This document shows positions 3,734 through 61,846 of a stretch of DNA of 64,000 nt, one piece after another. Numbering within the stretch: position 1 is the stretch's first letter; each line of letters begins with the position of its first letter. The notes under the pieces are model-generated. The model saw only the letters and a list, made by a program, of their open reading frames with translations, made no database searches and was not told the origin of the DNA. The translations under genes were made by a program, and so were the position numbers. Source of the DNA: a virus; IMG/VR virus record IMGVR_UViG_3300014293_000001, positions 1-64,000 of that record; one strand, written 5' to 3'.

Positions 3734-3743
3734 TACATAATAT

Positions 3744-3771
3744 GGGGAGGGCGACCTCCCCTATTTTTTTT
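3744..3771 (+). terminator. intrinsic terminator after capsid gene
   Basis: GGGGAGG-GCGA-CCTCCCC stem-loop (3744-3761) followed by TA and a T-run. Confidence 0.85.
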
Positions 3772-3781
3772 AGGAGGTACT

Positions 3782-9596: not shown

Positions 9597-11693
9597 ATGG
9601 CTGATAAAATTATTAAAATTATACAAGCTGCTACTCCTAATATTACGATTAATCATAATCGTGATGGGAAAGATGGCAAAAATGGTAAAGATTTTAAATT
9701 TGAAGATTTCACTCCTGCACAGTTGGAAAAATTAAAAGGTCCTAAAGGTGATAAGGGTGAAACTGGAGAAAGAGGTCCTGCGGGTAATGTAGGTCCTCAA
9801 GGTCCAATCGGTCCAAAAGGTAATGATGGTCCGCAAGGTCCACAAGGTATTCAAGGCTTAATAGGACCTAAAGGCTTACAGGGTGATGTAGGTCCAAAGG
9901 GGGAAATAGGCTCCCAAGGTCCTATTGGTCCTACTGGTTTAACTGGTCCTAAAGGCGATACAGGCGAACGTGGTCCTATTGGACCTAAAGGTGAGCAAGG
10001 TAACGTAGGTCCTGCTGGTCCTCAAGGATTGCAAGGTATCCAAGGTATTCGTGGTGAAGCGGGTCCTCAAGGTCCCCGTGGCGTACAAGGTGAGCGTGGT
10101 CCTATTGGTCCAATCGGTCCTACTGGTCTACAAGGACCAAGAGGTGAAAGAGGGGAACCTTTCAAAATCAGCTCTATCCAACCATCAATAGCTGTTATGA
10201 ACAGCAAAATTGGTACATTTACACAAAATAGTTTGGTTATGATACGTTCTAATGACGCTGATAACGGTAAGGTATTTGTTAAAACAGATACAGCTTTAGA
10301 ATATTTAACAACCATGACTGGCGTAAAGGGTGATAAAGGTGATATTGGTCCACAGGGTCCTATAGGTCCAACAGGTCCACAAGGTCCTAGGGGTGCAATA
10401 GGTCCGCAAGGTTTACAAGGTAATGCAGGACCACAAGGACCACAAGGTATAGCAGGACCTAAAGGAGATGCAGGTGAAAGAGGACCGCAAGGTCTAACTG
10501 GTCCAGTAGGTCCTAATGGTCAAAAAGGTGATATAGGTCCAGCAGGTCCAAAAGGTAGTGATGGTAAAAGTGCATATCAATCTTGGTTAGGTCTTGGTAA
10601 TACAGGTACAGAAGCTGATTTTATTAAAAGTCTTAAAGGTTCAGAACCAACACTTTTCAAAAGTGCAGCTAATATTGTCAAGGTATTAGAAATCCCATTA
10701 GATAGCGGCGTAAACCAATGTCAGGGCTTCACATATAATGAAGAAGTAAATGCTTTTTATATTGCTTGTGTAAATAGTGACAATACTAAACAAGTATTCT
10801 ATAAATACAATGCTGATTTCTCTACTTTAATGTCCAAACAAACATTTACAGATAAAAATAGATTGGGTCATTGCAACACATTATGTTCTTATAAAGGTAA
10901 AATCTATGTAACAAATGGTTCTGTAAATCCTAATCAAGTAGCAGTTATGAATGCTAATATGGCGATTGAAGGAACGGTAAATTTCCCTAATAAAGTCTTC
11001 AATTTAGCCTATGATAAAGCTTCAAACAAATTTGTTTCTATCTTATATACTGGTATAACAAAGCAACGTACTATTCAATATTATAATGAGAACAGAGTAT
11101 TTATCAATACTAAAACAATGCCCATTATTTCTACAAGTCAAGATACAAATGGTGCGTTATATAACGGTCAAAGTATTGTATTTTCTGTTGGTGGCTATAT
11201 TATTGAGAACATAGATGATAATGTTACTAATACAGAGGTAACATCTACACTTGAAGTTGAAGATTTTGCTATCTATAATGGAGAGGTGTATTTTACTGTA
11301 AACCGTAATGGTAAAGTTGAAGTGTATAAACATAGTTCAAACACTAAATACTTTAATAATATCAATTACACTCCTCCAAGTGTACCAGCATTAGCTAATA
11401 ATACTCCATTAACTGGTAAAGATACATCTGGTGTAGAATGGGGTTTAATTAAACTTAATAACGGTAATGGCGTAGAAGTTGGCAATAAAGATAAACCAAT
11501 GGCTTTATCAGCGTCACGCATTACATGGTGGGACGGTACAGCATCTCGTGCTATTTTAACAACTAAAGATTTTGATAATGCTTCTAAAACATTATATACA
11601 AAAAAAGAAACAGATGATACATTTATTTCTAAGGCTAAATACGAAGCAGATTTAACAGCCCTTAAAACAGCTCTTGATAAATTAAACCAATAG
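9597..11693 (+). CDS. collagen-like tail fibre protein
   Basis: 698 aa. Contains two uninterrupted G-X-Y blocks of 47 and 28 triplets, followed by a ~370-aa non-repetitive C-terminal domain. Confidence 0.85.
9738..10160 (+). repeat. collagen G-X-Y block 1 (47 triplets)
   Basis: Translation runs [13 protein letters not shown]...GPRGERGEP without interruption. Confidence 0.95.
10320..10571 (+). repeat. collagen G-X-Y block 2 (28 triplets)
   Basis: Translation runs [13 protein letters not shown]...GPKGSDGKS. Confidence 0.95.
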
Positions 11694-20500: not shown

Positions 20501-23500
20501 AGTATCTCCAAAGATATTAAATATATTAAAGACAATCCTCATATGTCTTTACGTGAATACCAACGTATTTATAATGGTATCGTTGCAAAGCGTAATCATT
20601 TAGTTCGTCAATCTCCTGAGTTTGTAGATAACTGGAATAATATTTTTAATAAAGTACCTAAATATAAGGTACCTAATGTAACTTCATTAATGCAAGCTAT
20701 CCGTAAAGGGGAAGTTAAAATTCCTCAAACAATACTAAGTTCATTCATTGATAAACCAAATCATTTTGATGAAAACTTAAAAGCATGGTTTACTAAAGAT
20801 TATAATTTAACTGACGTAGAAAATACACGTGATTTTGATAAAACACGTAATGCTATCATTTTGCAAGCAATGCAAAAAGCTTCTACACGTATCAAAACTA
20901 TTGGTATGCAACAGCTTATGGAAGAGCTAGACGACAAGAACGGCAACCATTTATTAGGTCGTTTTGTAAACCGTGCTATTCAAATGTACCCTGTTTACAG
21001 AAATAAAGATAAATATAGAAGTTTATCTGGTAAAGTCGCTGCTAAACGATTATTTCCAGAAGGTGCATCTGATTTTAGTAGTATGAATAGCCCTCTAGCT
21101 AAACGTGTATATGCTGATGTTAAGAAAATTGTACCAGCTGTAATGTCTGACAGAATTGCTAAGAATGGCAAAATTCAAGAAGAACGAATGAAAGATGCCA
21201 AAACTAAGAACCAAATTCAATCTGCATTGCGTTTAGGTGATTATGTAGATGGTGTATTAAATGCACATATTCCTGATGAGCAAGGCGGTACATATGATAC
21301 TAACATCAAGATGAACATTAAACTTGACGACGACTTTAATGTAGAAGCACCAATTCCAGAAGATGTTGATATTGAAGCATTTAAAGAAGCATTGGACTAT
21401 TACCTATCTGATATGGGTATTATCGCTAACGACGAAATGGTCGAAGATGGTAATACAGTTAAATTTGAGGCATCTTATATTCCAGAAACTGTATTTAACA
21501 ATAGTGCTTATATCGCACAAGCCGCGTGGAATACATTAGGTGGTGTAGTTAGACAACACGGTCATGTAATCTTAGATAATGCAAATCTTGACGAAGCAGG
21601 TCGTAAAGCGTTACAAACAGAAGCTAAGCAAGCATGGAAACAAGCTGGGTTTGAACTTATTTCTAACGATGATACATATACTTTAGTACCTATTGAAGAA
21701 ATTCAAAAATCTATTACAGGTAATAAACAAGTATCAAATAATAAAAATACTAAATTCCATGAACCCGGTCCTATTGAAATGGATATTTTACGTAAAGTTG
21801 CCGATAGAAGCGAAGGTCTTGGAAAATTGTCAAATGACGAAATGAAAACAATCTTACAATCTATTATGCACCAACTTGACGGAGACCGTGAAGCGTATGT
21901 CGCTGTATTACAATATCTCAAAAATCACCCTGATTTAGAGATATATGTTGCAGATAGAATGTTTGACATGGACTCTCTTGATTATACATTTGATGGTTTC
22001 TATATGCCGTCAACCAAGCGATTGTATATGACAAAAGATGCTATTATACCTGATGGAGATGTATTCTTGCACGAATTATTGCACAGTGCAACACACTACA
22101 CTGGCGTAAATGAAATTGTACCAAATGTAAATGACGCACTTAGAACATTAAGAAAGGAATTGGAATATGATGAAGGACTTGCAGGACAAATATACAGAGC
22201 TTCTGAACCAAGTGAAATACTTACATTTAGCGGAGAGCACTCAAAGAAAGATGTTGAAAACGCTCTTCAAAATGCCGCAGGCAACATTGGAAGTGCAGCA
22301 ATCACTATGCGTGATGCTCTCTCTAATACAAGTGAAGGCAAAACAATTCCAGATTTCCGCAAAGCTAGAAGTGGGAAAGATAATATCCCAGTTGGAGAAA
22401 ATGCACAGCGAGAAAGAAGTAGACGACTTATTCAAAGAGCTAATGCCATTCTACAAGAACAAAAAATAACACCAGAACATTTCGCTAAAATAGCACTGAT
22501 GGCTGATATGAAAGCGGACGAACCGTTTGAATATGCTGATGAACTTATGGACACTCCAGTTCCAGCTGAAGTAAAAATACTTGTAGCGGCGATGACTATC
22601 CCTGAAATACCACCTAAATTGGTTAATAACTATGATGGTTATAAGTTTATGAATGAAATGATGTCGTATGGTGGCTCTAAATTATTCTCTACTCACACAG
22701 TTAAAGAACATTTACGAAATGCATTGAGTGATATGAGACAAGTAGGTAAACAAAGTGAGCTCACCAAATTAAATAGAGTAAACAATAAACCAGCAGATGT
22801 TTTAAATGCGATGAAACAAAAGATAGATTACGCTATTAGAGCTAACGATAGAATTGACCAAGCAGAACAAAAATTACTTGCTGATATTATGGAACATGGT
22901 GGTGGTATCATTGAACGTATTAACCCATCAGAAGATGGTATATCTTTTGCATGGTTCCGTAAAATGCTACAATCTCCATCATCTTTAGCACGTAAACTTG
23001 TCCCAGAATTAAAACCTATTATCCAAGCAGCTTATGTTGCCGCACGTACAGCACGATATAAGCGTAGAGAATATATCGCAGACCTTGATAAATATTTCTT
23101 ATCCTTAGACGAAAAAGCTGGCGAAGACAAACAAATTAATAAACTCTTTGATGATATTGATAAACGTGGTCGTGAATTTGCACAACCAGTTGCAGTCCGC
23201 ATCAATGGAGAATTAAAATACGCTATTATTAAACCTAACGATGAATTCACAGAATTTGGTTTAGGCGATGATAAACGTATGCGTAAATTTGTTAAAGCGG
23301 AACGTGAAAAGGGTAACCATGTTTACGTTGGTATGTCTAAAGATGTATACCAAGTTATTTCTAGTAAAGATAATATTGCCGCATACAAAGATAAAGCAAA
23401 TGCTAATAAAGTAGCGATTGATATGTCTAAAGCGTATGCTAAGCAATTAGGTTATAGCGATAACGTATGGAATGCATATGTTGGTGTGCGTAATACACTT

Positions 23501-25921
23501 AACAAAATTCATAAAGACGTAAATGATAACCAAGTTGCACGTGGTAAAGAACCGTCTGCTGATTTATGGGGTTATATCCCTCGTGAACATAAACGATATG
23601 GTGTATATCGTGTTGAAGTTAAATATGACCCAGAAATAAAAGATTATCGAAAAAAATATACAGCATTAACATCTTTTGATACAGAACATCAAGCTAACCG
23701 ATTTGTTGATAGCTTAACTCCTGAAAAGGGTATAGCATATGCAACAATTCATCGTGATAGATACCAAGCAGATGCTTCTCAATCTTATGAAGGTTACTAT
23801 TCCAATCTTACAGAAGAAGAAGAAAACTTAAATAAAGTATATGAAAAAATGTCTACTGAAGATGCAGCAGCATTATTCAATAAAGTACAAGGTAATTATA
23901 CAGAGACTAAGAAATTCATTGACCATTTCTTAAAAGGTAAAGATAAGTCTATGACTTATGATGATTTTCAAAACTTAATTAATAACAAAGAACGAATGAA
24001 AGAAATCGGTCTTGACCCTCGTAAATTACAAAAAGAAGTAGCACAAGCTAACTTTGAAAAATTATTGAAGAAAGATAAAGATGGTCTTTTAACACATGAA
24101 AATGTGAGTGCATATTTATACCGTAGTTCTGGGGCTCAAATGTGGAATAAACATAATCTTAAACGTGCTGGTGTTATGGGTCATAACGAAGACCACACAG
24201 CAGCTATTTACCATTATGCTATGACACAAGCTAAGTATCAAGGTAATGCTCCATTCTTAGACTTTGCTACACGCTATTACGAAGAAGCTTTTGGTGAAAA
24301 CTATGAAAAGCAATATGGTCGTAATGGTACTGGTGCTAAAAATGCACGACAAGATATTGTCCATGATTATATCCAACGTGTAATTGGTGCACCAAATAAA
24401 GTAGATAAAGTCCTCAATCGTATTGGTCGTGAGTTACCATATATTGGTAATTTCATGGTTAAATACATGGGTGATAATTGGGTAACTAAATTACTCAACC
24501 GTAATATGCAAGCAATGGCTGTATTTAAACTAGGTGTATTCAGACCTACAGCCGCTATCGCACAGTTTGGTACATTAGCCAACGTAGCTGCTTTAACAGG
24601 GTTTACTCCTGAATTACGTTACGCAATGAAAGAAGCTGGTCGTGGTGGTAAAGATGGTAAATACGGCAAGTTATTTGATGACCTTGAAGTATATGAAGAA
24701 AATGCAAACCAAGCATCTGAATTCTTTAGCGATACACTAGACTATCGTAAATTAAAGGTTCATGGTATTAATATTGGTAAAGCATTTGATTTATCTATGA
24801 AAGGTTTCATGAAAGCCGACTCTTATACACGCAAAGTAGCCGCTATTGTAGCATACGAAAAATACTGTAAAGACCACAATATGGACCCTATGCAACCAAA
24901 TAAAAATGACCCAGATGGTTATCGTAAAGCTATGGAATACGCAAAAGATTTTGTTGTAAAAACAAACTTTGACTATAGTGATATTGATAGCCCTAGATTG
25001 TTTACTCAATTTGGTACATTAGGTAAAACATTATTACAATTTAAAAAGTTCGGTGTTAAAGAAGCTGAATTCTTATTCACTGCATTTAAACGTAATGATG
25101 GTTCTATTGACTATAAAGGTTTAGGCAGATTTATGAGCATCACAATGGGTATGGCTGGTTTCATGGGCTTACCATTTATGGGTGCTGGTGATGATATGCT
25201 TAAATGGTTGACAGGTAAGGGATTATCTGACCGTGCTAAAGACCTTGCTTATGAATGGGCTGGTAACGACCAAACTAAACAAAAAATTGCCTTACTTGCT
25301 ATGATGGGTGCACCATCTATGTTCGGTGTAGACTTTAGCCGTAATGTAGGTTTTGGTGATTTAACTCCAAGTAATGGTAGTGATTTGTTAGGTCCTACAT
25401 TATCTACATGGGGCTCTCTTGCTGACGTAGCTAGAAATAGCCATGATTGGAGAGATGTAGTTGCTGGTATTGGTCACTCATTATCACCACAACTTGGTAA
25501 CGTATACCAAGCGTATACAGGCAATATGCGTGACTGGAAAAATGCTGAAGATAAAGGTGCTTATACACCTGCTGAACGCATGATGAAGTTAATGGGCTTC
25601 AGACCTGCACGTGAATCTGTAGAAAATGATTTAGCTTATAGATTGACTATGGCAAATCAAGAGTTAAAAGAAGGTAAAAAACAAGCAATCAATGATTTCT
25701 TGAGAGACCCTTCTGATGAAAACCGTAAACGCCTTAAAGATTTTGGTGTTACTGGTAAACAACTTAAAGATGCTAGAGACTTAAAACAAATGTCTGCTAT
25801 TGACAAGGCTAATAAATACCTACCTAAGAAATCTTCTGTAGAAGCTGATAAGGTTAAGGAACAAGCTAATGTTTATAATACATTTGTTGACGGTATGTAT
25901 GATGGATTGGAGGAAGAATAA
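17519..25921 (+). CDS. giant (2800 aa) virion/ejected protein with central zincin HExxH motif
   Basis: AAAGGAG SD and a single uninterrupted ORF. It has Gly/Ala-rich hydrophobic stretches near both ends and HELLH at nt 22070-22084 (aa 1518-1522). It lies between the lysozyme and endolysin genes. Confidence 0.85.
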   Translation: MARWTDGLANRNAQAAYENNLAQYGSDYMGKASYDGILDETLGNFSAGIDRLGSDMLGSVAYGLSNIDGDTAQWLRGKAENEANFYANLAGYRSTMGDTADLPWNEQVINPHYWAAQIGNFAGNTVPQIGMAVRTAGFASGAMNVGKIGGLLGRAGLSEGLAGSVANGLGKVAKYGTEIATGAGLENLQNAGSIYNDYRNAGYNTDVAGSAFEQSLNQGWAPAALDYIADRAGVSGKAGMLASAFAKDGGKLIAKSMLGNAVNSSLEGYTEAWQQAIEGRIKGQEGYDQVSMLDPSTWTDDMWSAAKDAFNVSMAVGGMGSAARHIGNKALNKADEMADLTADNDIINDGTQPPIAVNDTPMADTGIDIASDVTETPDIINETPLGNVEIDDISNASYSPMMEESGFATAVNKALNNRPPEDYAEMMNRLQDERANIMELHGDKPADQLSPRMFEENFVNAGLEPKSARLVSRNLYNDMVGANNTETIEDASEVPQEESLADKADRLGVTLTDAERANLERENPDKTSVREVERRVADTEKNNAYNDQIRAIAEHRKAYNEDRYANSPNKTFFENEYKDNPYKAQDAAYRVHNAMEARKKDAKSSDIKKQEQSKNVRNYLAKAGIKPSNGYSTEELKNIAEYAKHMDNQERTPQNVQSYIQNRDMAKQVENVISTLPPKDSPDYLPAKRHLAQQLSKHLVTMGVNGFDVTGPQFENVRKILSTQERRMLQDNIDEAKRAKEETRRANSQLAERKPQDTQKFVNNKQVAVSEGNFAAADKEMADYLNSDRVTNEGLLEIQRRLSHTSREHKPKFKQTLDALQYRAQKGDILGGKVGNYNVMVRKPNSEWKAREVKDYTRTIDHDNPTGENREPIVTPYEERKALNPAQPKEKKKKTQSKSRTVDVTTEEQKAKMRDIDQLAKLKSTLQQFGQMNEETAKQAIDSVPMETKYGKEQKQKYKEYVLRQANEDTGDIDLSDDIQQPEDVISKHKDTLESISKDIKYIKDNPHMSLREYQRIYNGIVAKRNHLVRQSPEFVDNWNNIFNKVPKYKVPNVTSLMQAIRKGEVKIPQTILSSFIDKPNHFDENLKAWFTKDYNLTDVENTRDFDKTRNAIILQAMQKASTRIKTIGMQQLMEELDDKNGNHLLGRFVNRAIQMYPVYRNKDKYRSLSGKVAAKRLFPEGASDFSSMNSPLAKRVYADVKKIVPAVMSDRIAKNGKIQEERMKDAKTKNQIQSALRLGDYVDGVLNAHIPDEQGGTYDTNIKMNIKLDDDFNVEAPIPEDVDIEAFKEALDYYLSDMGIIANDEMVEDGNTVKFEASYIPETVFNNSAYIAQAAWNTLGGVVRQHGHVILDNANLDEAGRKALQTEAKQAWKQAGFELISNDDTYTLVPIEEIQKSITGNKQVSNNKNTKFHEPGPIEMDILRKVADRSEGLGKLSNDEMKTILQSIMHQLDGDREAYVAVLQYLKNHPDLEIYVADRMFDMDSLDYTFDGFYMPSTKRLYMTKDAIIPDGDVFLHELLHSATHYTGVNEIVPNVNDALRTLRKELEYDEGLAGQIYRASEPSEILTFSGEHSKKDVENALQNAAGNIGSAAITMRDALSNTSEGKTIPDFRKARSGKDNIPVGENAQRERSRRLIQRANAILQEQKITPEHFAKIALMADMKADEPFEYADELMDTPVPAEVKILVAAMTIPEIPPKLVNNYDGYKFMNEMMSYGGSKLFSTHTVKEHLRNALSDMRQVGKQSELTKLNRVNNKPADVLNAMKQKIDYAIRANDRIDQAEQKLLADIMEHGGGIIERINPSEDGISFAWFRKMLQSPSSLARKLVPELKPIIQAAYVAARTARYKRREYIADLDKYFLSLDEKAGEDKQINKLFDDIDKRGREFAQPVAVRINGELKYAIIKPNDEFTEFGLGDDKRMRKFVKAEREKGNHVYVGMSKDVYQVISSKDNIAAYKDKANANKVAIDMSKAYAKQLGYSDNVWNAYVGVRNTLNKIHKDVNDNQVARGKEPSADLWGYIPREHKRYGVYRVEVKYDPEIKDYRKKYTALTSFDTEHQANRFVDSLTPEKGIAYATIHRDRYQADASQSYEGYYSNLTEEEENLNKVYEKMSTEDAAALFNKVQGNYTETKKFIDHFLKGKDKSMTYDDFQNLINNKERMKEIGLDPRKLQKEVAQANFEKLLKKDKDGLLTHENVSAYLYRSSGAQMWNKHNLKRAGVMGHNEDHTAAIYHYAMTQAKYQGNAPFLDFATRYYEEAFGENYEKQYGRNGTGAKNARQDIVHDYIQRVIGAPNKVDKVLNRIGRELPYIGNFMVKYMGDNWVTKLLNRNMQAMAVFKLGVFRPTAAIAQFGTLANVAALTGFTPELRYAMKEAGRGGKDGKYGKLFDDLEVYEENANQASEFFSDTLDYRKLKVHGINIGKAFDLSMKGFMKADSYTRKVAAIVAYEKYCKDHNMDPMQPNKNDPDGYRKAMEYAKDFVVKTNFDYSDIDSPRLFTQFGTLGKTLLQFKKFGVKEAEFLFTAFKRNDGSIDYKGLGRFMSITMGMAGFMGLPFMGAGDDMLKWLTGKGLSDRAKDLAYEWAGNDQTKQKIALLAMMGAPSMFGVDFSRNVGFGDLTPSNGSDLLGPTLSTWGSLADVARNSHDWRDVVAGIGHSLSPQLGNVYQAYTGNMRDWKNAEDKGAYTPAERMMKLMGFRPARESVENDLAYRLTMANQELKEGKKQAINDFLRDPSDENRKRLKDFGVTGKQLKDARDLKQMSAIDKANKYLPKKSSVEADKVKEQANVYNTFVDGMYDGLEEE

Positions 25922-39307: not shown

Positions 39308-39756
39308 TAATAGCACCAGAAGAAAATATAGTAAGATTATTACGACAAATGAAAGACCAAGGTTTTACTGATTTTGTTATATTAGATGGAAATCTCCACA
39401 TTTTTGGCGACGGTATTGATGGAAAGATTATGTATTTGCCTAAAACAATCATGACTACCTTATGTACATTTTTATTGTCGCATAGACCACCGTATTCTAT
39501 ATCTAAAATTATTGCGGATATTGAACATGATTATGTTGGTCCAGATAAAGGATTTCAGTGGTTTGATTGTGTTCATAAACCAAATAAGCTTCGTTTCCGT
39601 GAAAGTAAACTTGGCGAAATGGTATTTACATTAAATGGTATTGTACGTTGTAACAAAGGCGATAAAATCATCATTGGTGTTAATGGTGAGCAATACCCAT
39701 GTGATAAAGAAATTTTTAAATTATTATATGACGAGGTGGAAAATGCAAGTAATTAA
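39304..39756 (+). CDS. hypothetical protein
   Basis: ATGA overlap; 150 aa. Confidence 0.6.
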   Translation: MIIAPEENIVRLLRQMKDQGFTDFVILDGNLHIFGDGIDGKIMYLPKTIMTTLCTFLLSHRPPYSISKIIADIEHDYVGPDKGFQWFDCVHKPNKLRFRESKLGEMVFTLNGIVRCNKGDKIIIGVNGEQYPCDKEIFKLLYDEVENASN

Positions 39757-42700
39757 ACGTGATGGAACAACCGAAGAATATTTAGGTCAAAAAATTGAGC
39801 GTGCAGTAGAAAAGGCAATGTTTGCAACATATCTTGTTATGGAGCCAACTATGTTAGCAGAACCATTCCAAGTGTCGTTATATGTATGGGATATTATTAA
39901 AGACGCAAAAGAACCTATATCTATTAAACAATTAGAAAATATTATTTTTCGTAAATTAACTGATGATGGTTATACTGATGCCGCTGTTAATTATATTGAA
40001 TACAAAACAAAACGTGATATGGAACGTAGTAAACATAAATTAACTCAAGAATTCTTGGACAAATATCCTGATTACCCTGATTGTATGGACGAGTTAGCTA
40101 AATTTGTGTATATTCGTACATATTCTCGTTGGTTGCCAGATAAAAATCGTCGTGAAACATGGAAAGAAACGTGTGCTCGTGCTATTAATGGTAATTGTTC
40201 TTATTTGCCTACGGCAGACGGTGAACCAGAAGCATTGTTTGATAATATGTTTAATTTACGACAACGTATTTCTGGTCGTATGTTATGGATGGGTGGTACT
40301 GAAGCATTGGAAAAAACACCATTAGCGGCGTATAATTGTTCTGGTATTACGATGGATAGTATTCATGCATTTCATGAATTATTTTATTTGTTAATGGTAG
40401 GTACTGGTGTTGGTTGTCGTGTATTGAAAGAAGATATTGCAAAATTACCTCAGTTTGATACAACTAAAAAGTTATATCACGTTAAAACTCCTGTTCCTAA
40501 AGGTACAACATTAGAGCATACAAAAGTATCTAACTATGGTCATAGTGTTATCATTACAGTAGGTGATAGTAAAGAAGGTTGGTGTGAAGCATTAACTGCA
40601 TATCTTACTACTATGACGGATAATGTAACTACATCTATTTCTATTGATTACAGTTATATTAGACCTCAAGGTGCACCACTTAAAACATTCGGTGGTTATG
40701 CAAGTGGCTATGCATCTTTAAAAGAAATGTTTGAAAAGCTTCATAAAATTATTGTCAAAGAAAGCACCGATGGTAAATTACGTCCATTGAATGTTGCCGA
40801 TATGTGTAATATTGTTGGGCAAAATGTAGTTGCAGGTGGTACACGCAGAACAGCAGAACTTATCCTATTTAGTCCTGATGATGAAGAAATGCTACACGCT
40901 AAGGAAAACCTAGACCCAGAACATTACTTCCGTTATATGTCTAATAACTCTATGTATTTAGAAGAAAAGCCTTCTAAAGAAGGTTTACGTAAGTTAATGA
41001 TGTCTATTAAAGAAACAGGAGAACCGGGTTTTATTAATGTTGCTTCTGCTAAAAAGCGTCGTGAAGATTTTGATATATGTAATCCATGTGTAACTGGTAC
41101 TACAGAAATCTTAACTAAAGAGTATGGTTATATTCAAATTAAAGACGTTGTTGACGAAGATGTAACAGTATGGAATGGTTATGATTGGAGCCCTGTAACA
41201 CCTAGAGTAACTGGTTATGACCAACCTATGATGAGAATTCAATTTTCTAATGGTAATGAATTAGAATGTACTAATTACCATAAATTTGTGATGCAAGATG
41301 GTTCTCGCATTGAAGCTCGTGAATTATGTATTGGCGACAAATTAGAAAGATGGGAATTCCCTGTAGTTGAAGCAGATGAACGTGCTATGGGTATCTATTA
41401 TGCAGAAGATTATGACCCATATATTCACGGATATTATGCTGGTGATGGTATACAAAATAAACCTTTGATTTACTTATATGGTGAAAAACGTAAATTAGTA
41501 GATGTATTCAGCAATTCATCTGGATGTACGATTAGTGAAGGGTTAGAACGTGATACAGTATTATTGCCTAAACAACTATCTAAATATCTTGTACCAGATG
41601 TTGGGGACGCAGTATATCATAGATTGCGTTACTTAGCTGGTCTACTTGATAGTACTGGATGCGTACATTTCAGTGAAGGCTCTGTTGCTATTCCATCTAT
41701 TGATAAAGAATTCCTTATTAAGATTTCTCGTCTGTTAAATACACTAGGTTGTCATGCTTCTATTCATTTAATGCATGAAGGTGGTTATCGTAAAGTGCCA
41801 GTTGAAGGTGGTCCTGATGATAGTCAAGTATATTATTGCCGACCTACATATAAATTAATTATTCCCGCTTGGTATGTTAGACGTTTAATTAATTTGGGTT
41901 TGTCAACTCATTATATTCATTTAGATGCTTATCCAAATAGTAATGATAGCCAAGCTATTTATATCACATCTATTGAATATATTAGAAATTGTCCAACAGT
42001 ATATTGTTTTACTGAAAATAAAAATCATACTGGTATTTTTAATGGTGTTATGACTGGACAATGTGCTGAAATTTTATTACCATCTAAAGCAGTATGCAAC
42101 CTTACTAATATCAACGTATCTAAGTTTATTGATGAACGTGGTAATGTAATGATACCTCAGCTTAAAGAAGCATGTAAATTATCTGCTCGTGCTTGTTATC
42201 GTTTAACTGAACCTGAATTAGAATTAGAAGGTTGGAGTGATATTCACCATAGAGACCGTTTAATTGGTTGCTCTATTACAGGTTGGCAAGATGCTGTAGC
42301 TGGTAATTTAACGAAAGAAGAACAAGAAGCATTACTTGTATTAATGAAAATGTGGATTAACGATGCGGCTAATAAATACGCAGATGAAAACCATCGTCCT
42401 CACCCTGTATTGTATACAACAGTACAACCAGATGGTACAGGTGGATTAATTAGTAGTTGTTCTGCTGGTGTTCATTATAATCATGCTCCATATTATTTCA
42501 GACGTGTACGTATTTCAACCAATTCTCCATTATACCAAGCTGTTAAATATTTAGATGGCTGGCAAATTGATAATGAAGTTGGTCAAGGTGATGATGGTAA
42601 TACAAAAGTAATTACATTCCCTTGTAAATCTAAATCTACAATTACAAAATATAATGTATCAGCTATTGAACAATTAGAACAATATAAGATGATGCAAACA

Positions 42701-43012
42701 TGTTACGTGGACCATAATACATCAATTACTGTTACAGTAAAAGACAATGAATGGGACGATGTAATAGATTGGTTAGATAAAAATTGGGATTGTGTAGTAG
42801 GTATTTCATTCTTGTCTCTAAATCAAGATTACTATCCGTTAATGCCTTATGAAGAATGCACTAAAGAACAGTACTTAGAATTAAAATCTAAAATGTCTCC
42901 ACTTGACCCAGAATTAGTCAATAAATATGAATTTGAACTACAAACTGTAGGTAAAGATTTTGAAATTGATGAAAGTGGAGAATGTGAAGATGGTCATTGC
43001 CCAGTGCGGTAG
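39743..43012 (+). CDS. ribonucleotide reductase, class II-like (B12-dependent, RTPR-like), intein-containing
   Basis: ATG 39743 follows GAGGTGG; the track start 39635 is an upstream extension. N-terminal VIKRDG (ATP-cone-like). The finger-loop motif NP|C..AEI is split by an intein. C-terminal C-x4-C tail (CEDGHC). Confidence 0.75.
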   Translation: MQVIKRDGTTEEYLGQKIERAVEKAMFATYLVMEPTMLAEPFQVSLYVWDIIKDAKEPISIKQLENIIFRKLTDDGYTDAAVNYIEYKTKRDMERSKHKLTQEFLDKYPDYPDCMDELAKFVYIRTYSRWLPDKNRRETWKETCARAINGNCSYLPTADGEPEALFDNMFNLRQRISGRMLWMGGTEALEKTPLAAYNCSGITMDSIHAFHELFYLLMVGTGVGCRVLKEDIAKLPQFDTTKKLYHVKTPVPKGTTLEHTKVSNYGHSVIITVGDSKEGWCEALTAYLTTMTDNVTTSISIDYSYIRPQGAPLKTFGGYASGYASLKEMFEKLHKIIVKESTDGKLRPLNVADMCNIVGQNVVAGGTRRTAELILFSPDDEEMLHAKENLDPEHYFRYMSNNSMYLEEKPSKEGLRKLMMSIKETGEPGFINVASAKKRREDFDICNPCVTGTTEILTKEYGYIQIKDVVDEDVTVWNGYDWSPVTPRVTGYDQPMMRIQFSNGNELECTNYHKFVMQDGSRIEARELCIGDKLERWEFPVVEADERAMGIYYAEDYDPYIHGYYAGDGIQNKPLIYLYGEKRKLVDVFSNSSGCTISEGLERDTVLLPKQLSKYLVPDVGDAVYHRLRYLAGLLDSTGCVHFSEGSVAIPSIDKEFLIKISRLLNTLGCHASIHLMHEGGYRKVPVEGGPDDSQVYYCRPTYKLIIPAWYVRRLINLGLSTHYIHLDAYPNSNDSQAIYITSIEYIRNCPTVYCFTENKNHTGIFNGVMTGQCAEILLPSKAVCNLTNINVSKFIDERGNVMIPQLKEACKLSARACYRLTEPELELEGWSDIHHRDRLIGCSITGWQDAVAGNLTKEEQEALLVLMKMWINDAANKYADENHRPHPVLYTTVQPDGTGGLISSCSAGVHYNHAPYYFRRVRISTNSPLYQAVKYLDGWQIDNEVGQGDDGNTKVITFPCKSKSTITKYNVSAIEQLEQYKMMQTCYVDHNTSITVTVKDNEWDDVIDWLDKNWDCVVGISFLSLNQDYYPLMPYEECTKEQYLELKSKMSPLDPELVNKYEFELQTVGKDFEIDESGECEDGHCPVR
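41087..42061 (+). mobile_element. intein (325 aa) with LAGLIDADG homing-endonuclease domain
   Basis: Starts CVTGTTEIL directly after Asn-Pro. Contains TNYH (block B) and the LAGLIDADG-like motifs HGYYAGDG and YLAGLLDSTG. Ends VYCFTENKNHTGIFNGVMTGQ, followed by extein CAEI. Confidence 0.8.
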
Positions 43013-49023: not shown

Positions 49024-49057
49024 AAAAAAAGCCCCAATTAAGGGGCTTATTTTTTTA
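49024..49057. terminator. bidirectional intrinsic terminator between convergent operons
   Basis: A7, AGCCCC-AATTAA-GGGGCT, T-run. Confidence 0.85.
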
Positions 49058-49437: not shown

Positions 49438-49815
49438 TTAAATGCTATTAGTTTCATCGTATATAATTGGGTCTTTACCATAAGTATTATCCCAATCAAC
49501 AAACTTACTATTAACGGGGTAAAAATACCCATAAGGAGACCATACACTACTAAAACACAACTGTTGAATAGTTTCTGCGTCGTAAATACAATTTACTAAA
49601 TCATCTTCTACTTCACTTTCTCGTGATTCGCTAAGTGTTCTATATAAATTGTCAAGAAGATTTTTCAAAGCAAACACCAGTGTCCACGGTACTTCCACAT
49701 TAAATGTTTCTTCCAATTCTGATAAAATATATTCTACGCTATAATATAATGTTTTATCATTGAATTGAACACCATTGATATAACCTTTAAAATCATGAAC
49801 AATCTTTTCTTTCAT
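49438..49815 (-). CDS. hypothetical acidic protein
   Basis: ATG 49815 follows AAAGGAG. The track's upstream M-rich extension is implausible. Confidence 0.6.
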   Translation of the reverse strand: MKEKIVHDFKGYINGVQFNDKTLYYSVEYILSELEETFNVEVPWTLVFALKNLLDNLYRTLSESRESEVEDDLVNCIYDAETIQQLCFSSVWSPYGYFYPVNSKFVDWDNTYGKDPIIYDETNSI

Positions 49816-50116
49816 TATATCTCCTTTTACATTTACTACTACAAAACCTCCCATATTTACGTTCTTGAATTGGTGGTAATCTACCACCACACACACAGCA
49901 ATGAGTAGCTTTAGAACCACGTTTACCATTAACACCATCATATTCATGTTCATCATCATATTGTTGCCATTTCATGTCAAACTTTTGTTGCCATGTTAAT
50001 GTATCTTCAGGCGGTTTAAAACTTTTTCGTGTTGCTGGATTTTTACAAGCATCACATAATACATCGTTGCCGTGCACTTCAAATAATGTGCTACAACTAT
50101 GACATTTTCTCTGCAT
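49793..50116 (-). CDS. double zinc-ribbon protein
   Basis: AAAGGAGG SD. Cys motifs CHSC...CDAC and CCVCGG...CSSKC. Confidence 0.65.
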   Translation of the reverse strand: MQRKCHSCSTLFEVHGNDVLCDACKNPATRKSFKPPEDTLTWQQKFDMKWQQYDDEHEYDGVNGKRGSKATHCCVCGGRLPPIQERKYGRFCSSKCKRRYNERKDCS

Positions 50117-50126
50117 ATAACCTCCT

Positions 50127-50306
50127 TTATATTAATTCAGCATAATACGTTGTATTAGATACTGAACGATTGCTATACATATTCATATAAAACGCATATG
50201 TATCATCACGCCACTTTTGTACTCTATATTGCACTCTTGTAGTCAATATCTCAGACGTAACAAAGCACCCACACAATGAGCGAAATCTATCTTCTGGTCT
50301 AATCAT
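50127..50306 (-). CDS. small paralog family member 13 of 13 (59 aa; below the track cutoff)
   Basis: ATG 50306 follows TAAGGAGGAAGC. Reads MIRPEDRFRSLCGCFVTSEILTTRVQYRVQKWRDDTYAFYMNMYSNRSVSNTTYYAELI. Confidence 0.55.
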   Translation of the reverse strand: MIRPEDRFRSLCGCFVTSEILTTRVQYRVQKWRDDTYAFYMNMYSNRSVSNTTYYAELI

Positions 50307-50315
50307 GCTTCCTCC

Positions 50316-50507
50316 TTATACAAAAAACTTAACTTCATAAATCATATTACGTGACATACTCTTACCGTAACGCCCTATGTAGCAATATTTTAATGGTTCT
50401 ACATCTATACTCAAATAATGGTCATGCAATACATTAAATAATAAGTCTTGTTCATACGCATCATATTGGATAGAAGTTGCTTTTAATATATCGCTTTTCC
50501 TTATCAT
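50316..50507 (-). CDS. small paralog family member 12
   Basis: ATG 50507 follows GAGGTG (MIRKSD...YEVKFFV); the track start 50543 is upstream. Confidence 0.6.
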   Translation of the reverse strand: MIRKSDILKATSIQYDAYEQDLLFNVLHDHYLSIDVEPLKYCYIGRYGKSMSRNMIYEVKFFV

Positions 50508-50517
50508 ATTCACCTCA

Positions 50518-50727
50518 TTAGTATCTTTGTAATTTAGCTGCACATATAGATTTATATATTATTGCATTGTAAGAATCTCGTGTATCATATCGCATAATAT
50601 ATAAACCATCTATTGTTAAAACAGTTTGACCAAATTTGTTTGGAGGACAACAATAACCGTATGTATATGTCGTAGACGCATAATTTTTAACAAGATATAC
50701 TCTTAACATATTTTTTGTATCAATCAT
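50518..50727 (-). CDS. small paralog family member 11
   Basis: 69 aa; ATGA overlap with the upstream member. Confidence 0.6.
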   Translation of the reverse strand: MIDTKNMLRVYLVKNYASTTYTYGYCCPPNKFGQTVLTIDGLYIMRYDTRDSYNAIIYKSICAAKLQRY

Positions 50728-50930
50728 TCTACACCTCTTGTTAATACCACTTTAAATGGTCTTATTCTATCTACATAATAACGTTCACCATATAAATAGT
50801 AGAATAATTGTGAAATCGCACATTCGTCTTCAAGACGTTCATAATTTTCCATATATCTAGTAGTTTTAACTATAGTCGGTCGTTTAATAACATCTGTAAA
50901 TTGATATAAATATTTTGTATTTAACATCAT
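50724..50930 (-). CDS. small paralog family member 10
   Basis: 68 aa, abutting its neighbours. Confidence 0.6.
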   Translation of the reverse strand: MMLNTKYLYQFTDVIKRPTIVKTTRYMENYERLEDECAISQLFYYLYGERYYVDRIRPFKVVLTRGVE

Positions 50931-51130
50931 TATCCTCTTTTCTTCACGTATTTTATTTCAATAACTTTACGATATGCATTATTTTTATTACTATAATTAT
51001 TTCTATAAGCTAATTTTAATGGGCATAATACATCAGCAACACGTGTCGGATGAAATATAAAGCTAACGTTACCTATACAATTAGAGTAATGTTTAGTTGT
51101 TAAAATTACACCATCTGCCGCTCTTATCAT
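50930..51130 (-). CDS. small paralog family member 9
   Basis: MIRAADG...YRNNY...IEIKYVK; 66 aa. Confidence 0.65.
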   Translation of the reverse strand: MIRAADGVILTTKHYSNCIGNVSFIFHPTRVADVLCPLKLAYRNNYSNKNNAYRKVIEIKYVKKRG

Positions 51131-51309
51131 TTTAACTTCACCACTCTAAACATATTATGACATTGATATAAGTATATAAAATTATCCAACATTACAAATG
51201 GTACTGCGTATGTTGATAAATTATTATTATTTATGAATTGAGATACACGTATTCTCTGTTTAGGATGTACTATATTGACTTGATACAGTCTATCATTTTT
51301 GTTTATCAT
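51127..51309 (-). CDS. small paralog family member 8
   Basis: MINKNDRL...RVVKLK; 60 aa. Confidence 0.65.
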   Translation of the reverse strand: MINKNDRLYQVNIVHPKQRIRVSQFINNNNLSTYAVPFVMLDNFIYLYQCHNMFRVVKLK

Positions 51310-51311
51310 AA

Positions 51312-51497
51312 TTAATCACATAACCCCTCATATTTTATTTCAATCATCTGCTGGTAATTATACATATATTTATAAATATATAATAATAGAATATTACCAT
51401 CATATATATATCCAATACGTTCTTTACACGATAGTTTATCTACTACATTCGGATAATCTGTATATGTACATATTACTTTGGCTTTGTTATGTATCAT
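51312..51497 (-). CDS. small paralog family member 7
   Basis: MIHNKAK...IEIKYEG; 61 aa. Confidence 0.6.
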   Translation of the reverse strand: MIHNKAKVICTYTDYPNVVDKLSCKERIGYIYDGNILLLYIYKYMYNYQQMIEIKYEGLCD

Positions 51498-51684
51498 AAT
51501 CTAGCTCCATTATTGCAAAAATATAATTATTATCGTATCTCATTTGTAATATGTCTATTAATCGCCATTTGACATTATGACATACGAATATACATTCAGA
51601 TGTATCTACTTTATGACGAATGAATGGCAAAGTTACATCATTGGATGTTTCTTTTATCAAAAAAGTGTCATTCTTCTTCATCAT
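51487..51684 (-). CDS. small paralog family member 6
   Basis: MMKKNDTF...MRYDNNY...ELDYD; 65 aa. Confidence 0.65.
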   Translation of the reverse strand: MMKKNDTFLIKETSNDVTLPFIRHKVDTSECIFVCHNVKWRLIDILQMRYDNNYIFAIMELDYDT

Positions 51685-51868
51685 ACTTCACCTGTACTAA
51701 TTCATAATTATATCCAGCGGAATATTGATTACGAAATATATTGTATACTCCACGAATCTGTTCGTGTATAAATAATAATGGATAGTTGTGTGTATCACCT
51801 CGTAGTTCGTAAGCCACTGCATTGGCTCTTATTTCAATTAATCGAACACCATCATTTTTATTCAACAT
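51668..51868 (-). CDS. small paralog family member 5
   Basis: MLNKNDGV...FRNQYSAGY...VQVKYDE; 66 aa. Confidence 0.65.
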   Translation of the reverse strand: MLNKNDGVRLIEIRANAVAYELRGDTHNYPLLFIHEQIRGVYNIFRNQYSAGYNYELVQVKYDEEE

Positions 51869-52052
51869 TTTTTACTCCTGCTATGGTATATTCATATCCA
51901 TTTTTATAATTTCTAATATAAACATCACGTATACTATTTAAATCGTCATATGTAAAATACCAACTGTAAGGTTGCACTGAACTGCATAATTTACCAATAG
52001 TTTTCGCTGCTCTCATTTCTATTAATGAGATTTGATGATATATATTTAACAT
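51858..52052 (-). CDS. small paralog family member 4
   Basis: MLNIYHQ...IRNYKNGY...AGVKNVE; 64 aa. Confidence 0.65.
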   Translation of the reverse strand: MLNIYHQISLIEMRAAKTIGKLCSSVQPYSWYFTYDDLNSIRDVYIRNYKNGYEYTIAGVKNVE

Positions 52053-52246
52053 AACTTCACCTTAAATGCATTTAACATACCCTGATAATCATTTCTAGCA
52101 TATTTGTTGCGGAACATTTTTTCGACAAGTACTGTACTGATGTAAAAATCAGCACGATAATATCTACTTGCTCCACCACAAAATTGTGGTACATATTCTA
52201 TTGCTGTCATTCTAATTTTTTGATTTTTATTTATCATTCGTATCAC
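52046..52246 (-). CDS. small paralog family member 3
   Basis: MIRMINKNQ...FRNKYARNDY...FKVKLC; 66 aa. Confidence 0.65.
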   Translation of the reverse strand: MIRMINKNQKIRMTAIEYVPQFCGGASRYYRADFYISTVLVEKMFRNKYARNDYQGMLNAFKVKLC

Positions 52247-52247
52247 C

Positions 52248-52439
52248 TCAATCTTCTAATTTCAAATAAAACACACCGTTATCATCTTTATCGTAACACG
52301 CAATTAGTTCATTACACAGATAACAATCAGGTGAGCTATCTGTTTGTTGATAATCCGTTGTAATAGGACCAAATAATTTGTTAATTATATTATAATTAAC
52401 TGTATAATAGCTAGTAACTGATGCATAACGATTTAGCAT
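52248..52439 (-). CDS. small paralog family member 2
   Basis: 63 aa ending FYLKLED. Confidence 0.55.
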   Translation of the reverse strand: MLNRYASVTSYYTVNYNIINKLFGPITTDYQQTDSSPDCYLCNELIACYDKDDNGVFYLKLED

Positions 52440-52618
52440 ATAAACACCTCTTCACTTATTTGATATACAAAAGCAGCACCGTGCTTGTAGTTTCTTGTAA
52501 ACAGTGCTAATAATGTCATTGAAGATAATTCTGTTACAGGATTAGGAAAATCTTGTGTCCATCTGAAATGATTTTTGTATGTTGTTATTTTTACTTTAAA
52601 TGTTTTTTGTTCTATCAT
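52433..52618 (-). CDS. small paralog family member 1
   Basis: 61 aa; contains TRNYKHG. SD is GAGGTG. Confidence 0.6.
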   Translation of the reverse strand: MIEQKTFKVKITTYKNHFRWTQDFPNPVTELSSMTLLALFTRNYKHGAAFVYQISEEVFIC

Positions 52619-52645: not shown

Positions 52646-52663
52646 GGGGAGCCGAAGCTCCCC
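52646..52663 (-). other. very stable GC hairpin with C(UUCG)G tetraloop on the transcribed (minus) strand
   Basis: The plus strand reads GGGGAGC-CGAA-GCTCCCC, so the minus-strand RNA loop is UUCG. No U-tract follows on the minus strand. Confidence 0.6.
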
Positions 52664-52669
52664 ACTGGA

Positions 52670-53227
52670 CTATTGGGAAACTTCAGCAGTATTTACTTCT
52701 TCATTCACTTCATTTTCTACAGGTGTTTCTGTAGCTGTTTCAGAAGGTGTTTCAGGAGTTGGTTCTGTTGGTGCTTGAACCATTACAACTGGAGTTGGGT
52801 TGGACATTTTGTAGTGTTCGTAGAATTCGGTACCCATTTCACGGTCAATTCGTTTTAATTCTTGAATTAACAAATAAGATGTTTCAGCACCACGTTCGAT
52901 GTATTTCTTAGTGCGTGCTTTAATAGCCATTAACACGATTTGTTGTAAATCACGTACTTTAACAGTACCAGCTTTAGATACGAATACGAATTTCTTAGCC
53001 GTTTCTTCGTTTAAAGAGATAACAGGGATTTTAATAGTATCTACTGCATCTTTACCAGTGTTAGTAGCGGCAAATTCAGAAATTGCACGAGCAACACCAG
53101 ATGGAGTAGCAGAATATACTTTAGTTTGTTTTAAAGAATTGGCAATAAAACGTAATTGTTCTTTATCAGATAAAGCAGAAACGTAGTTAGTAATAATCAA
53201 GTTCATTTGTGCAACAGTTGTAGCCAT
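52670..53227 (-). CDS. hypothetical protein with acidic P/T/E-rich tail
   Basis: AAAGAGG SD; 185 aa. C-terminus reads APTEPTPETPSETATETPVENEVNEEVNTAEV. Confidence 0.7.
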   Translation of the reverse strand: MATTVAQMNLIITNYVSALSDKEQLRFIANSLKQTKVYSATPSGVARAISEFAATNTGKDAVDTIKIPVISLNEETAKKFVFVSKAGTVKVRDLQQIVLMAIKARTKKYIERGAETSYLLIQELKRIDREMGTEFYEHYKMSNPTPVVMVQAPTEPTPETPSETATETPVENEVNEEVNTAEVSQ

Positions 53228-60865: not shown

Positions 60866-60924
60866 AAACGTATGTTCGATGTTACATCAAATTATATTTT
60901 ATACAATACGTGTATGTGAAATTA

Positions 60925-61805
60925 AATCGTATGCAATATAATATATAAAAAATATATCGTGCGTGATTATATATAATTAAAAATAATTGTATACAACCAA
61001 TCTATTATAAATTAAATTGTACAAAATATAATTGTATTTTTTATCAAATGTAAATATAATAAAATACCATATATATATAATTTTGTCAATAGCCCTAGAA
61101 TTGATTATATTAGCCTCTAAGGTGCTTCTAACTATTTTTAGGTATAATCTATCATTGAATATATAAAAACGCCATACAGGGCAAATAAAGCGTTTTTAAT
61201 TACACAATTAAATTGTACACAATATAATTGGACATAAAAAAAGGCTACCCTACACAATAGGATAGCCTAAAATTAAATTGTACAAAACTAACAATTATCA
61301 CGATTGAATAATACAAAATAAGATTGCATACAATTAATTGAGCATGATGCCACAATATACAATACAATTGAATACCATAAAATAATATCAAATTAAAACA
61401 GGTACAACTAAATTGAGTACAATATGATTATATACAATACGGTTGCGGGGAAAATAAAAGTATCAAATTCCATTGTATAAAATATAAACGATATAAGATA
61501 ATACAGTATAAGATATAATATAATAAAATCAAATTGTATGCAATACAATTTCTATAAAATAAAATAGTGTAAAACTCAATTGTATACAATATAAGTATAA
61601 TCACAAACTACATTATACACAATTCAATTTTACACAATATATATAAACATATGTTCGATTTTAAAGACAATAAAAAATACCAGATAATCGAATACAATTC
61701 AATTGTACACAATTAGTCAGGCGGGGTAATAAAAAGAATAAAATTCCATTGTATCAAATATACGTATATAGTAATATAAACATATAAAACTAAATTGTAT
61801 ACAAT
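60925..61805. repeat. iteron array: ~14 copies of a 13-bp dyad AATTGTAYRCAAT
   Basis: Perfect copies at 61211, 61532, 61578, 61701 and 61793. Copies with 1-3 mismatches at 60925, 60985, 61015, 61276, 61411, 61471, 61611, 61626 and 61747. There is also a ~54-bp direct repeat (61445-61498 and 61721-61772). Confidence 0.85.
61236..61267 (-). terminator. intrinsic terminator (minus strand) inside the non-coding region
   Basis: The plus strand reads A7 then GGCTACCCTA-CACAA-TAGGATAGCC. On the minus strand this gives a 10-bp stem (one mismatch) followed by U7. Confidence 0.6.
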
Positions 61806-61815
61806 AGAATAGATA

Positions 61816-61846
61816 CAAAAAAAGGGTAGCCTTAATAGACTACCCT
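61816..61846 (-). terminator. intrinsic terminator of the 156-aa gene
   Basis: The plus strand reads A8 then AGGGTAG-10 nt-CTACCCT. On the minus strand this gives a stem followed by a U-run, 10 nt after the stop codon. Confidence 0.75.

Follow-up and report, generated by a model that had tools for sequence, protein, structure and literature searches.

A tandem array of thirteen small, fast-diverging genes in a 66-kb phage genome: a candidate host-interaction family

Why does an uncultivated phage with a genome of about 66 kb devote 2.5 kb of it to back-to-back genes for proteins of about 60 residues? The question is raised by positions 50127–52618 of the window, the stretch of 64,000 nucleotides (nt) analysed here, which corresponds to positions 1–64,000 of the IMG/VR record IMGVR_UViG_3300014293_000001. 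This region, hereafter the array, consists of 13 consecutive open reading frames (ORFs) on the minus strand, numbered m1 to m13 in the leftward direction. Comparison of their sequences with those of related phages shows that the array is a multigene family of proteins of 53–71 amino acids, apparently restricted to one phage lineage, in which a conserved small scaffold is combined with fast divergence and turnover. This evolutionary signature matches that of conflict genes. On the basis of the evolutionary pattern and the genomic context, we tentatively favour, at not quite even chances, the view that the array provides a diversifying repertoire of small cytoplasmic binders for anti-defence or host takeover.

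Coding status and kinship of the array genes

All 13 ORFs described at this locus by a first-pass annotation, which had read m13 by hand, were recovered by ORF listing and direct translation, and their products have 59–69 amino acids once two starts are corrected. The start of m3 is taken to be the ATG at 52237 (MINKNQ) and that of m12 the one at 50507 (MIRKSD); each of these ATGs lies a few nt 3' of a GAGGTG sequence, and the longer GTG-started ORFs are mechanical. The successive junctions from m1 to m13 measure −7, +10, −7, −11, −17, −11, +2, −4, −1, −4, +10 and +9 nt. Neighbouring genes therefore overlap or are separated by no more than 10 nt, as had been claimed; the ATGA form ascribed to the overlaps is found at two junctions only, and most overlaps are of 7–17 nt. 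A Shine–Dalgarno (SD) sequence of the GAGG/GGAG/AGGTG type lies 4–12 nt upstream of 11 of the 13 genes (those of m8 and m9 are weak), in agreement with the earlier statement that most members own one. Because the genes are packed head to tail and their SD sequences often lie inside the last codons of the preceding gene, the array has the look of a co-transcribed set with coupled translation; it occupies the distal end of a leftward non-structural operon.

The 13 ORFs are genuine coding genes, conserved in relatives. Single-strand ORFs tile 99.5 per cent of positions 50127–52618, compared with a mean of 3.5 per cent and a maximum of 27 per cent in 1000 shuffles of the region, none of which contained more than four ORFs. 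With codon usage trained on the large genes of the window, its own frame scores best for every one of the 13, and the same ORFs are called by independent gene callers. An overall dN/dS of 0.46, below 1, is further evidence of coding. The alternative of chance ORFs in AT-rich DNA, raised in the first-pass annotation, is not compatible with these figures.

The kinship of the members is hardly visible in pairwise comparison. The only obvious pair found with phmmer is m4–m5 (E = 2e-7), a few others reach 0.002–0.03, and pairwise search of the 266 distinct array proteins from all loci leaves 53 components. Iterative profile searches were conducted against a database of which two-thirds were decoys (shuffled and reversed sequences). 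Hidden Markov model iteration seeded with m1 recruits 144 real sequences together with two of 532 decoys, and covers m1–m7, m9 and m12. The m10 protein enters the family by iteration from m3, m11 remains alone, and m8 and m13 join one component through a subfamily found in relatives. In a leave-own-group-out test, designed to be non-circular, m1, m2, m3, m5, m6, m7 and m9 score above all 532 decoys and m4 is matched by one; m8 (18/532 decoys as high) and m11 (16/532) are marginal, and m10, m12 and m13 are not significant. In the all-versus-all profile comparison proposed with the annotation, similarity is present: 50 of 465 real subfamily pairs score better than the 99th percentile of a reversed-sequence control, against an expected number of about five. 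When the 247 ORFs of 40–100 amino acids in the window were scanned with the family models, the best matches outside the training sets were m8, m10 and m11, and no family member was found outside the array.

These comparisons show that most array members arose from a single ancestor through repeated duplication in tandem, as expected of a multigene family. By profile, membership is firm for about nine members (m1–m7, m9 and m12) and marginal for m8, m10 and m11, and m13 is tied in only through the m8 subfamily and the core motif; the original description of thirteen paralogues thus holds for about nine. Repeats at the DNA level were considered as the basis of the array and rejected, since no tandem or dispersed repeats beyond short chance-level pairs were detected in it; the paralogy is old.

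A different explanation would be that the array is not one family at all, and that unrelated small accessory genes have been made alike by translational coupling in AT-rich DNA, through A-rich early codons and in-frame SD sequences. Indeed, the SD sequence of a gene often forms part of the reading frame of the gene before it, in its final codons, where GAG GTG AAG gives EVK, CAG GTG AAG gives QVK, AAG GTG AAG gives KVK and AAA AGA GGA gives KRG. The terminal [IV]-x-[IV]-K strand motif reported earlier is seen, and it and the basic tails are for this reason partly a constraint at the nucleotide level. The N-terminal motif M-[IL]-x-K-x-D is also present, though complete in only about 7 of 13 members and situated in a zone of initiation and overlap constraints. 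When six N-terminal and eight C-terminal residues were trimmed, the leave-out signal dropped sharply: only m4 and m9 still top all decoys, with m1 at 4/518, m5 at 15/518 and m11 at 27/518. The 53 pairwise components and the failure of m10, m12 and m13 in the leave-out test also suit convergence.

Against convergence stands an internal motif, far from both termini. The RN.Y box of the first-pass annotation is literal in 5 of 13 members; in the generalized form [FYLW]xxxY, 8–24 residues from the C-terminus, it occurs in all 13. Among 100 representatives clustered at ≤75 per cent identity it is found in 88 per cent, compared with 30 per cent of shuffles (maximum 43 per cent), a test somewhat weakened because the motif was defined after the sequences had been inspected. 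The extended motif hydrophobic-x-x-hydrophobic-[FYLW]xxxY occurs in 55 per cent of representatives and 6 per cent of shuffles. Moreover, the trimmed test still yields ranks that are, taken together, skewed towards low values, the EVK of m12 is encoded without an SD-like sequence, and clear recent duplicates exist (m4/m5 in the window; m1–m1, x5–x5 and x11–x11 in relatives). An SD sequence embedded in the unit would itself be passed on through tandem duplication. Convergence of unrelated genes is, in our judgement, quite improbable. The case nevertheless carries a caution for other coupled gene arrays, in which an in-frame SD sequence (GAG GTG AAG, read as EVK) can mimic a conserved protein motif.

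Returning to descent from a common ancestor, the best-conserved stretch across subfamilies is the N-terminus, where the between-group entropy is as low as 1.1 bits at position 2 versus about 3 elsewhere and the M-[IL] start is conserved family-wide. An aromatic residue near position 15 is kept across members. The predicted helix carries the pattern hydrophobic-x-x-hydrophobic-[FY]-x-x-x-Y, of which one Tyr is invariant across groups.

AlphaFold2 models were calculated from alignments of window members and database relatives. The m1 model (predicted local distance difference test (pLDDT) 75.3; predicted template modelling score (pTM) 0.58) has strand 1 at residues 6–13, a low-confidence loop at 14–28, strand 2 at 29–35, a helix at 36–45 and a last strand at 50–58. 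In the m5 model (pLDDT 65.7, pTM 0.42) the corresponding elements are at 7–15, 31–33 with 38–40, 41–50 and 55–62. Both proteins are thus predicted, with modest confidence, to be strand–loop–strand–helix–strand with the same element order. The structural check advised by the annotation therefore yields one topology for two members, in models whose agreement is not independent. The array proteins have no transmembrane segments and are mostly basic, with isoelectric points (pI) from 4.2 to 10 (median 9.2) and net charges from −5 to +9 (median +3); several have K/R-rich tails. The lack of membrane segments and the spread of pI are in keeping with a cytoplasmic, accessory character.

Database searches place the family in this phage lineage. 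The 13 proteins have no match near the curated cut-offs of Pfam-A or PHROGs v4 (best E = 0.014–0.13, far below gathering scores), and a sequence search of the PDB gave nothing significant (best E = 0.16). Foldseek comparison of the moderately confident models gave best E values >1 against the PDB and 0.3 against BFVD; homing-endonuclease models scattered among the matches (E about 1–2) were judged to be noise. HMMER, run without filters against 1.84 billion representative proteins, gave 15 hits. Fourteen of them come from arrays of this phage group; the fifteenth, a 578-amino-acid repeat protein, was judged spurious. In a search of 5.8 billion proteins the 98-sequence family profile proved too diffuse (two hits), and a tighter 66-sequence alignment worked. 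Since the search of 1.84 billion proteins found only the same phage group, the family appears to be confined to this lineage. Literature searches found no equivalent array described. It is a new protein family in a 13-copy tandem arrangement, which is unusual for a 66-kb phage.

Variation among related phages

The helicase encoded upstream of the array retrieves 34 IMG/VR loci (78–98% identity) on contigs of about 64–68 kb. Every locus that reaches far enough has 7–15 ORFs of about 50–78 amino acids between a gene for about 180 amino acids and a Cys-rich gene for about 104. In the arrays of relatives 65 per cent of junctions overlap and 89 per cent fall within −20 to +15 nt. An SD-like 4-mer is present in 82 per cent of 270 distinct array genes, compared with 11 per cent of internal control 15-mers. 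This ORF architecture is kept in all relatives, down to 78 per cent helicase identity.

Substitution rates were calculated between the window and five close relatives. The array has a synonymous rate (dS) of 0.136, a non-synonymous rate (dN) of 0.063 and a dN/dS of 0.46 (range 0.10–1.16); for five flanking genes these values are 0.047–0.279, 0.001–0.014 and 0.02–0.16. The dN of the array is thus 5–60 times that of its flanks. Among the members, m7 and m8 have dN/dS of about 0.7–0.8, and m13, m5 and m12 have low values (0.10–0.26). The comparison of copy number and dN/dS suggested with the first-pass annotation therefore gives 7–15 genes per array and a dN/dS above that of the flanks, and bears out its description of conserved length with fast divergence.

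Nucleotide identity to six close relatives is 97–99% in the helicase, 185-amino-acid and 107-amino-acid genes, and varies between 71 and 100% within the array. The m1 gene of the window is only 71–75% identical to those of L002, L005, L030, L031, L040 and L041, and other members diverge in other relatives. An m1 of this identity within flanks that are 97–99% identical points to allele replacement, and the identity pattern of the array is best described as a recombination mosaic. Between lineages whose helicases are 92–93% identical, only subfamilies m1, m3, m4/5, m8/13 and m10 are still recognizable; at 79 per cent helicase identity almost none is. Recent tandem duplicates are found in several lineages (m1–m1, x5–x5 and x11–x11 in relatives, m4/m5 in the window). 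Contigs with an identical m5 carry imprecise deletions that take away parts of m5–m8. Precise excision of cassettes was considered and rejected: the end points of the deletions in L004, L038 and L041 lie within genes and do not correspond in position.

Members of an ortholog group differ most at family positions 18–34, corresponding to the loop that joins strands 1 and 2, and least in the helix; across the family, the greatest variation is in surface charge and in the segment from strand 1 to strand 2. Copy number and content differ between close genomes, another property of multigene families, and members are gained, replaced, recombined and deleted among near-identical genomes.

Such turnover might also be expected of a neutral or decaying remnant, in which duplication-prone DNA yields eroding copies without present function. 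The imprecise deletions and truncations in close relatives, the relaxed constraint on m11 (dN/dS 1.16) and on m7 and m8, and the GC content of the array (0.288, the lowest of the neighbourhood) are in keeping with decay. However, the architecture of about 60 codons, the SD sequences and the tight junctions persist where the sequences themselves are no longer recognizable, dN/dS is 0.46 overall and 0.10–0.26 for m13, m5 and m12, and a size-limited 66-kb genome retains about 4 per cent of its length as array. We consider a decaying remnant very improbable.

The individual members, all on the minus strand, differ in several respects. The first, m1 (52433–52618; 61 amino acids; SD GAGGTG), is a core-family member and m2 (52248–52439; 63 amino acids), which overlaps it by 7 nt, is acidic (pI 4.2). 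The m3 gene (52046–52237; 63 amino acids from the ATG) has its GAGGTG 6 nt 5' of the ATG, the mechanical ORF reaching a GTG at 52246, and iteration seeded with it recruits m9, m12 and m10. A recent paralogue of m5, m4 (51858–52052; 64 amino acids) is followed by m5 itself (51668–51868; 66 amino acids), which is partly deleted along with m6 in L004. The m6 gene (51487–51684; 65 amino acids) overlaps m5 by 17 nt, and its product joins m4 and m5 by iteration; m7 (51312–51497; 61 amino acids) is deleted in L041. The m8 protein (51127–51309; 60 amino acids; motif FIYLY) is the best non-training match among the 247 ORFs to the A4 model, and its gene is partly deleted in L038 and L041.

The m9 gene (50930–51130; 66 amino acids) joins m8 by an ATGA overlap and encodes a basic protein (pI 10). 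It is followed by m10 (50724–50930; 68 amino acids; motif FYYLY), recruited from the m3 seed only and the second-best non-training match to a family model. In the close relative L040, m9 and m10 are called as one 123-amino-acid product (3742–4113), through stop loss or a frameshift, an example of fusion inside the array. The m11 gene (50518–50727; 69 amino acids; motif YIMRY) has the highest dN/dS of the array and is the best non-training match to the model big.hmm (E = 0.009). The mechanical ORF of m12 (50316–50507; 63 amino acids from the ATG) reaches a GTG at 50543; the protein, recruited by iteration, ends in EVKFFV. Finally, m13 (50127–50306; 59 amino acids; motif YMNMY) has a strong SD sequence (AAGGAGG) and a dN/dS of 0.10, and is truncated in L002, L003 and L034; its family link is weak by sequence and ties it to the group of m8 (hhalign E = 9e-6 to subfamily c14).

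Genomic surroundings

The C(UUCG)G hairpin reported ahead of the array is indeed present at 52646–52663 on the minus strand (GGGGAGC-UUCG-GCUCCCC), between the stop of the 185-amino-acid gene and the SD sequence of m1. It is unique in the window, with no matches in shuffles, and is conserved in all relatives, with compensatory stems (GGGGAAC/GUUCCCC, GGGGGC/GCCCCC) and a mostly conserved UUCG loop. The hairpin is followed by UAUAAAAAAG, and a U-tract is absent here and in every relative. Because of the compensatory stems and the lack of a U-tract, it looks like a selected RNA element and not a canonical terminator. It could act as a stabilizer, a processing site or a partial attenuator, and would in this way set the expression of the array apart from that of the tightly conserved gene upstream.

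That gene, for the 185-amino-acid protein (52670–53227, minus strand; dN/dS 0.017), precedes the array in all relatives, and its product matches no known family. A 12-nt tandem repeat at 52721–52755 codes for the acidic, Pro/Thr/Glu-rich tail in which the protein ends. The downstream end of the array is adjoined in all relatives by the gene for the 107-amino-acid Cys-rich protein (49793–50116, minus strand; dN/dS 0.16), which has two zinc-ribbon-like CxxC pairs and only sub-threshold treble-clef and RING hits. A mechanical ORF of 173 amino acids (49438–49959, minus strand) overlaps this gene by about 165 nt; since gene callers give a 125-amino-acid product on identical or related contigs, its real start is probably downstream.

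The leftward unit begins after an ORF-free control region at about 60.9–61.8 kb and includes, in order, small unknown genes, an amidoligase-like protein, an SNF2 helicase, the 185-amino-acid protein and the array. Beyond the array are the Cys-rich gene and one more gene, followed by a perfect, bidirectional terminator-like hairpin at 49029–49048 (AAGCCCC...GGGGCTT, with T-runs on both sides), where leftward and rightward units converge. An Rfam scan of 48.5–53.5 kb gave sub-threshold hits at this terminator only and none in the array, and a scan for sigma-70 promoters found sites no commoner than in shuffles. The ORF-free stretch of about 0.9 kb (60880–61830) that heads the operon contains about 17 sites of the palindromic 13-mer AATTGTATACAAT. 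With up to two mismatches, this 13-mer has 42 strand-matches in the window versus 11 ± 4 in shuffles, and 29 of them are inside 60880–61830. The region resembles an array of operators or iterons, or alternatively an origin or promoter cluster.

The window covers almost all of a phage genome of about 66 kb, encoding an SU10-type major capsid protein, Pol III alpha, a DnaG–DnaB primase–helicase and a class II ribonucleotide reductase; no tRNAs were found in it. It has no close cultured relative, and Megablast of the array region against INPHARED phages gave no match. A helicase search of genome contigs returned only 23–24% identical helicases in two rumen metagenome-assembled genomes, which is uninformative on the host. 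The strong use of SD sequences would speak against a host poor in them, such as one of the Bacteroidota. The ribonucleotide reductase (1125 amino acids; 39635–43012, plus strand) has a LAGLIDADG_3 domain at residues 664–745 that interrupts the barrel domain, and the insertion is probably an intein with a homing endonuclease. On the same strand, an ORF of 2800 amino acids in the structural module (17519–25921) has no Pfam hit, and a 698-amino-acid tail-fibre-like protein (9597–11693) has strong matches to collagen-like repeats in PHROGs.

Possible roles and known systems

Under the counter-defence or host-takeover reading that we favour, each paralogue would be a small binder of a host protein, which it would either neutralize or redirect; variants of a polymorphic anti-phage defence or of a host-takeover target are the likeliest candidates. 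As a repertoire, the array would let the phage infect a broader set of host strains. Phage T4 overcomes toxIN by tandem amplification, under selection, of tifA, a small gene encoding an inhibitor of ToxN (PMC9391042), and the internal proteins (IPs) of T-even phages have been described as small, highly diverse proteins directed against restriction, with nothing in common but an N-terminal leader, the capsid-targeting sequence (CTS) (PMC3012670). Both are precedents that support the proposed role.

Several observations weigh against it. Much of the profile signal sits in the termini, under nucleotide-level constraints. The models are of only moderate confidence (pLDDT 66 and 75), and the agreement between m1 and m5 is not independent because the two alignments overlap. 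Most members are basic, which also suits nucleic-acid binding or packaging with DNA. An overall dN/dS below 1 means that pervasive positive selection is not demonstrated, and high local dS (0.77 for m1) indicates recombination rather than diversification driven by point mutation. Similarity to a known anti-defence protein, fold or family was found neither in Pfam, PHROGs, PDB and BFVD nor among the 1.84 billion proteins.

The basic character of the family leads to two further explanations. In one, the members act on DNA or RNA of the phage or the host, as small nucleic-acid binders or regulators, with paralogues tuned to different sites. The median net charge of +3, the K/R-rich tails, the neighbouring helicase and replication-type genes and the dense palindromic 13-mer array at the head of the same operon would all suit such a role. 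However, the charge spans −5 to +9, some K/R tails are simply the SD sequence of the next gene in frame (AAG AAA AGA GGA, read as KKRG), Pfam and PHROGs scans of the members revealed no helix-turn-helix (HTH), ribbon-helix-helix, zinc-finger or other known signature, and members are freely lost between near-identical genomes, which is unusual for regulators. We give this explanation little credence.

In the other, the array encodes internal virion proteins, packaged and ejected as in a T-even IP locus, whose N-terminus would be a capsid-targeting leader and which would act on injection. The conserved N-terminus (1.1 bits at position 2 versus about 3) and the small, mostly basic proteins (median pI 9.2) agree with this, as does the motif [LI]-x-E at residues 10–14 in the subfamilies of m3–m6. 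This motif, which is restricted to those subfamilies, resembles a T4-type protease site; the protease of the present phage may cleave with another specificity. Known IPs are likewise highly diverse defence proteins with only the CTS in common (PMC3012670), whereas array members appear to share a core motif and, at modest confidence, a predicted fold as well. Furthermore, the array belongs to the leftward operon of non-structural genes, on the strand opposite to the head genes, and includes acidic members such as m2 (pI 4.2). Packaging as internal proteins is, on balance, unlikely.

All four alternatives, convergence and decay included, fit the evidence less well than a repertoire of counter-defence or host-takeover binders. 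A more specific form of that repertoire, doubtful though worth stating, is a ‘binder library’: a tiny strand–strand–helix–strand scaffold, hypervariable in the loop that joins strands 1 and 2, would have been amplified to 10–15 copies that recombination shuffles among co-circulating phages, and each copy would neutralize its own allele of a polymorphic protein of host immunity. If true, this would be a germline-encoded repertoire strategy, so far undescribed for phage counter-defence. More generally, if the proteins are counter-defence or host-takeover binders, the arrays constitute a compact natural inhibitor library of dozens of subfamilies for finding new defence systems and weak points, the scaffold of about 60 amino acids with its variable loop might be engineered, and the locus would be a clear phage example of the amplify–diversify–prune dynamics known from poxvirus and African swine fever virus (ASFV) multigene families.

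Among known systems, Gp2 of phage T7 is an inhibitor of host RNA polymerase of about 64 amino acids, built of a sheet plus a helix, single-copy and acidic. The array proteins are like it in size and in their small predicted beta-sheet and single helix ending aromatic-Tyr, followed by a terminal strand; unlike Gp2, they come in many copies and most are basic. No similarity to Gp2 was found: hhalign with a Gp2 sequence gives E = 0.37 (probability 0.16%), and Gp2 is absent from the Foldseek PDB hits of the models.

Anti-CRISPR and other anti-defence clusters usually bring together unrelated genes with an HTH regulator (Aca). The array shares with them small, fast-evolving, dispensable ORFs without homologues, clustered and apparently co-transcribed, and differs in that its genes are paralogues. 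No Aca-type HTH neighbour was found among the flanking genes of the array, and no member hit an anti-defence family in Pfam or PHROGs.

The T-even IP loci (T4 IPI*, PMC3012670) are also clusters of small, mostly basic, highly diverse phage proteins, with the N-terminus best conserved and with content that is polymorphic between related phages; their known members inhibit host restriction (PMC3012670). IPs have only the leader in common, and array members also share the core helix motif and a predicted fold. Copies there are few, compared with 10–15 here, and the array is in a non-structural operon.

Amplification of poxvirus K3L and the multigene families of ASFV are viral gene accordions or multigene families in the same sense. 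The array copies are unlike recent identical amplicons in being ancient, highly diverged and free of DNA-level repeats. What the array has in common with these accordions, as with tifA of T4 (PMC9391042), is tandem amplification, copy-number variation between close isolates, and amplification followed by divergence and loss, in those systems of a small host-antagonist gene.

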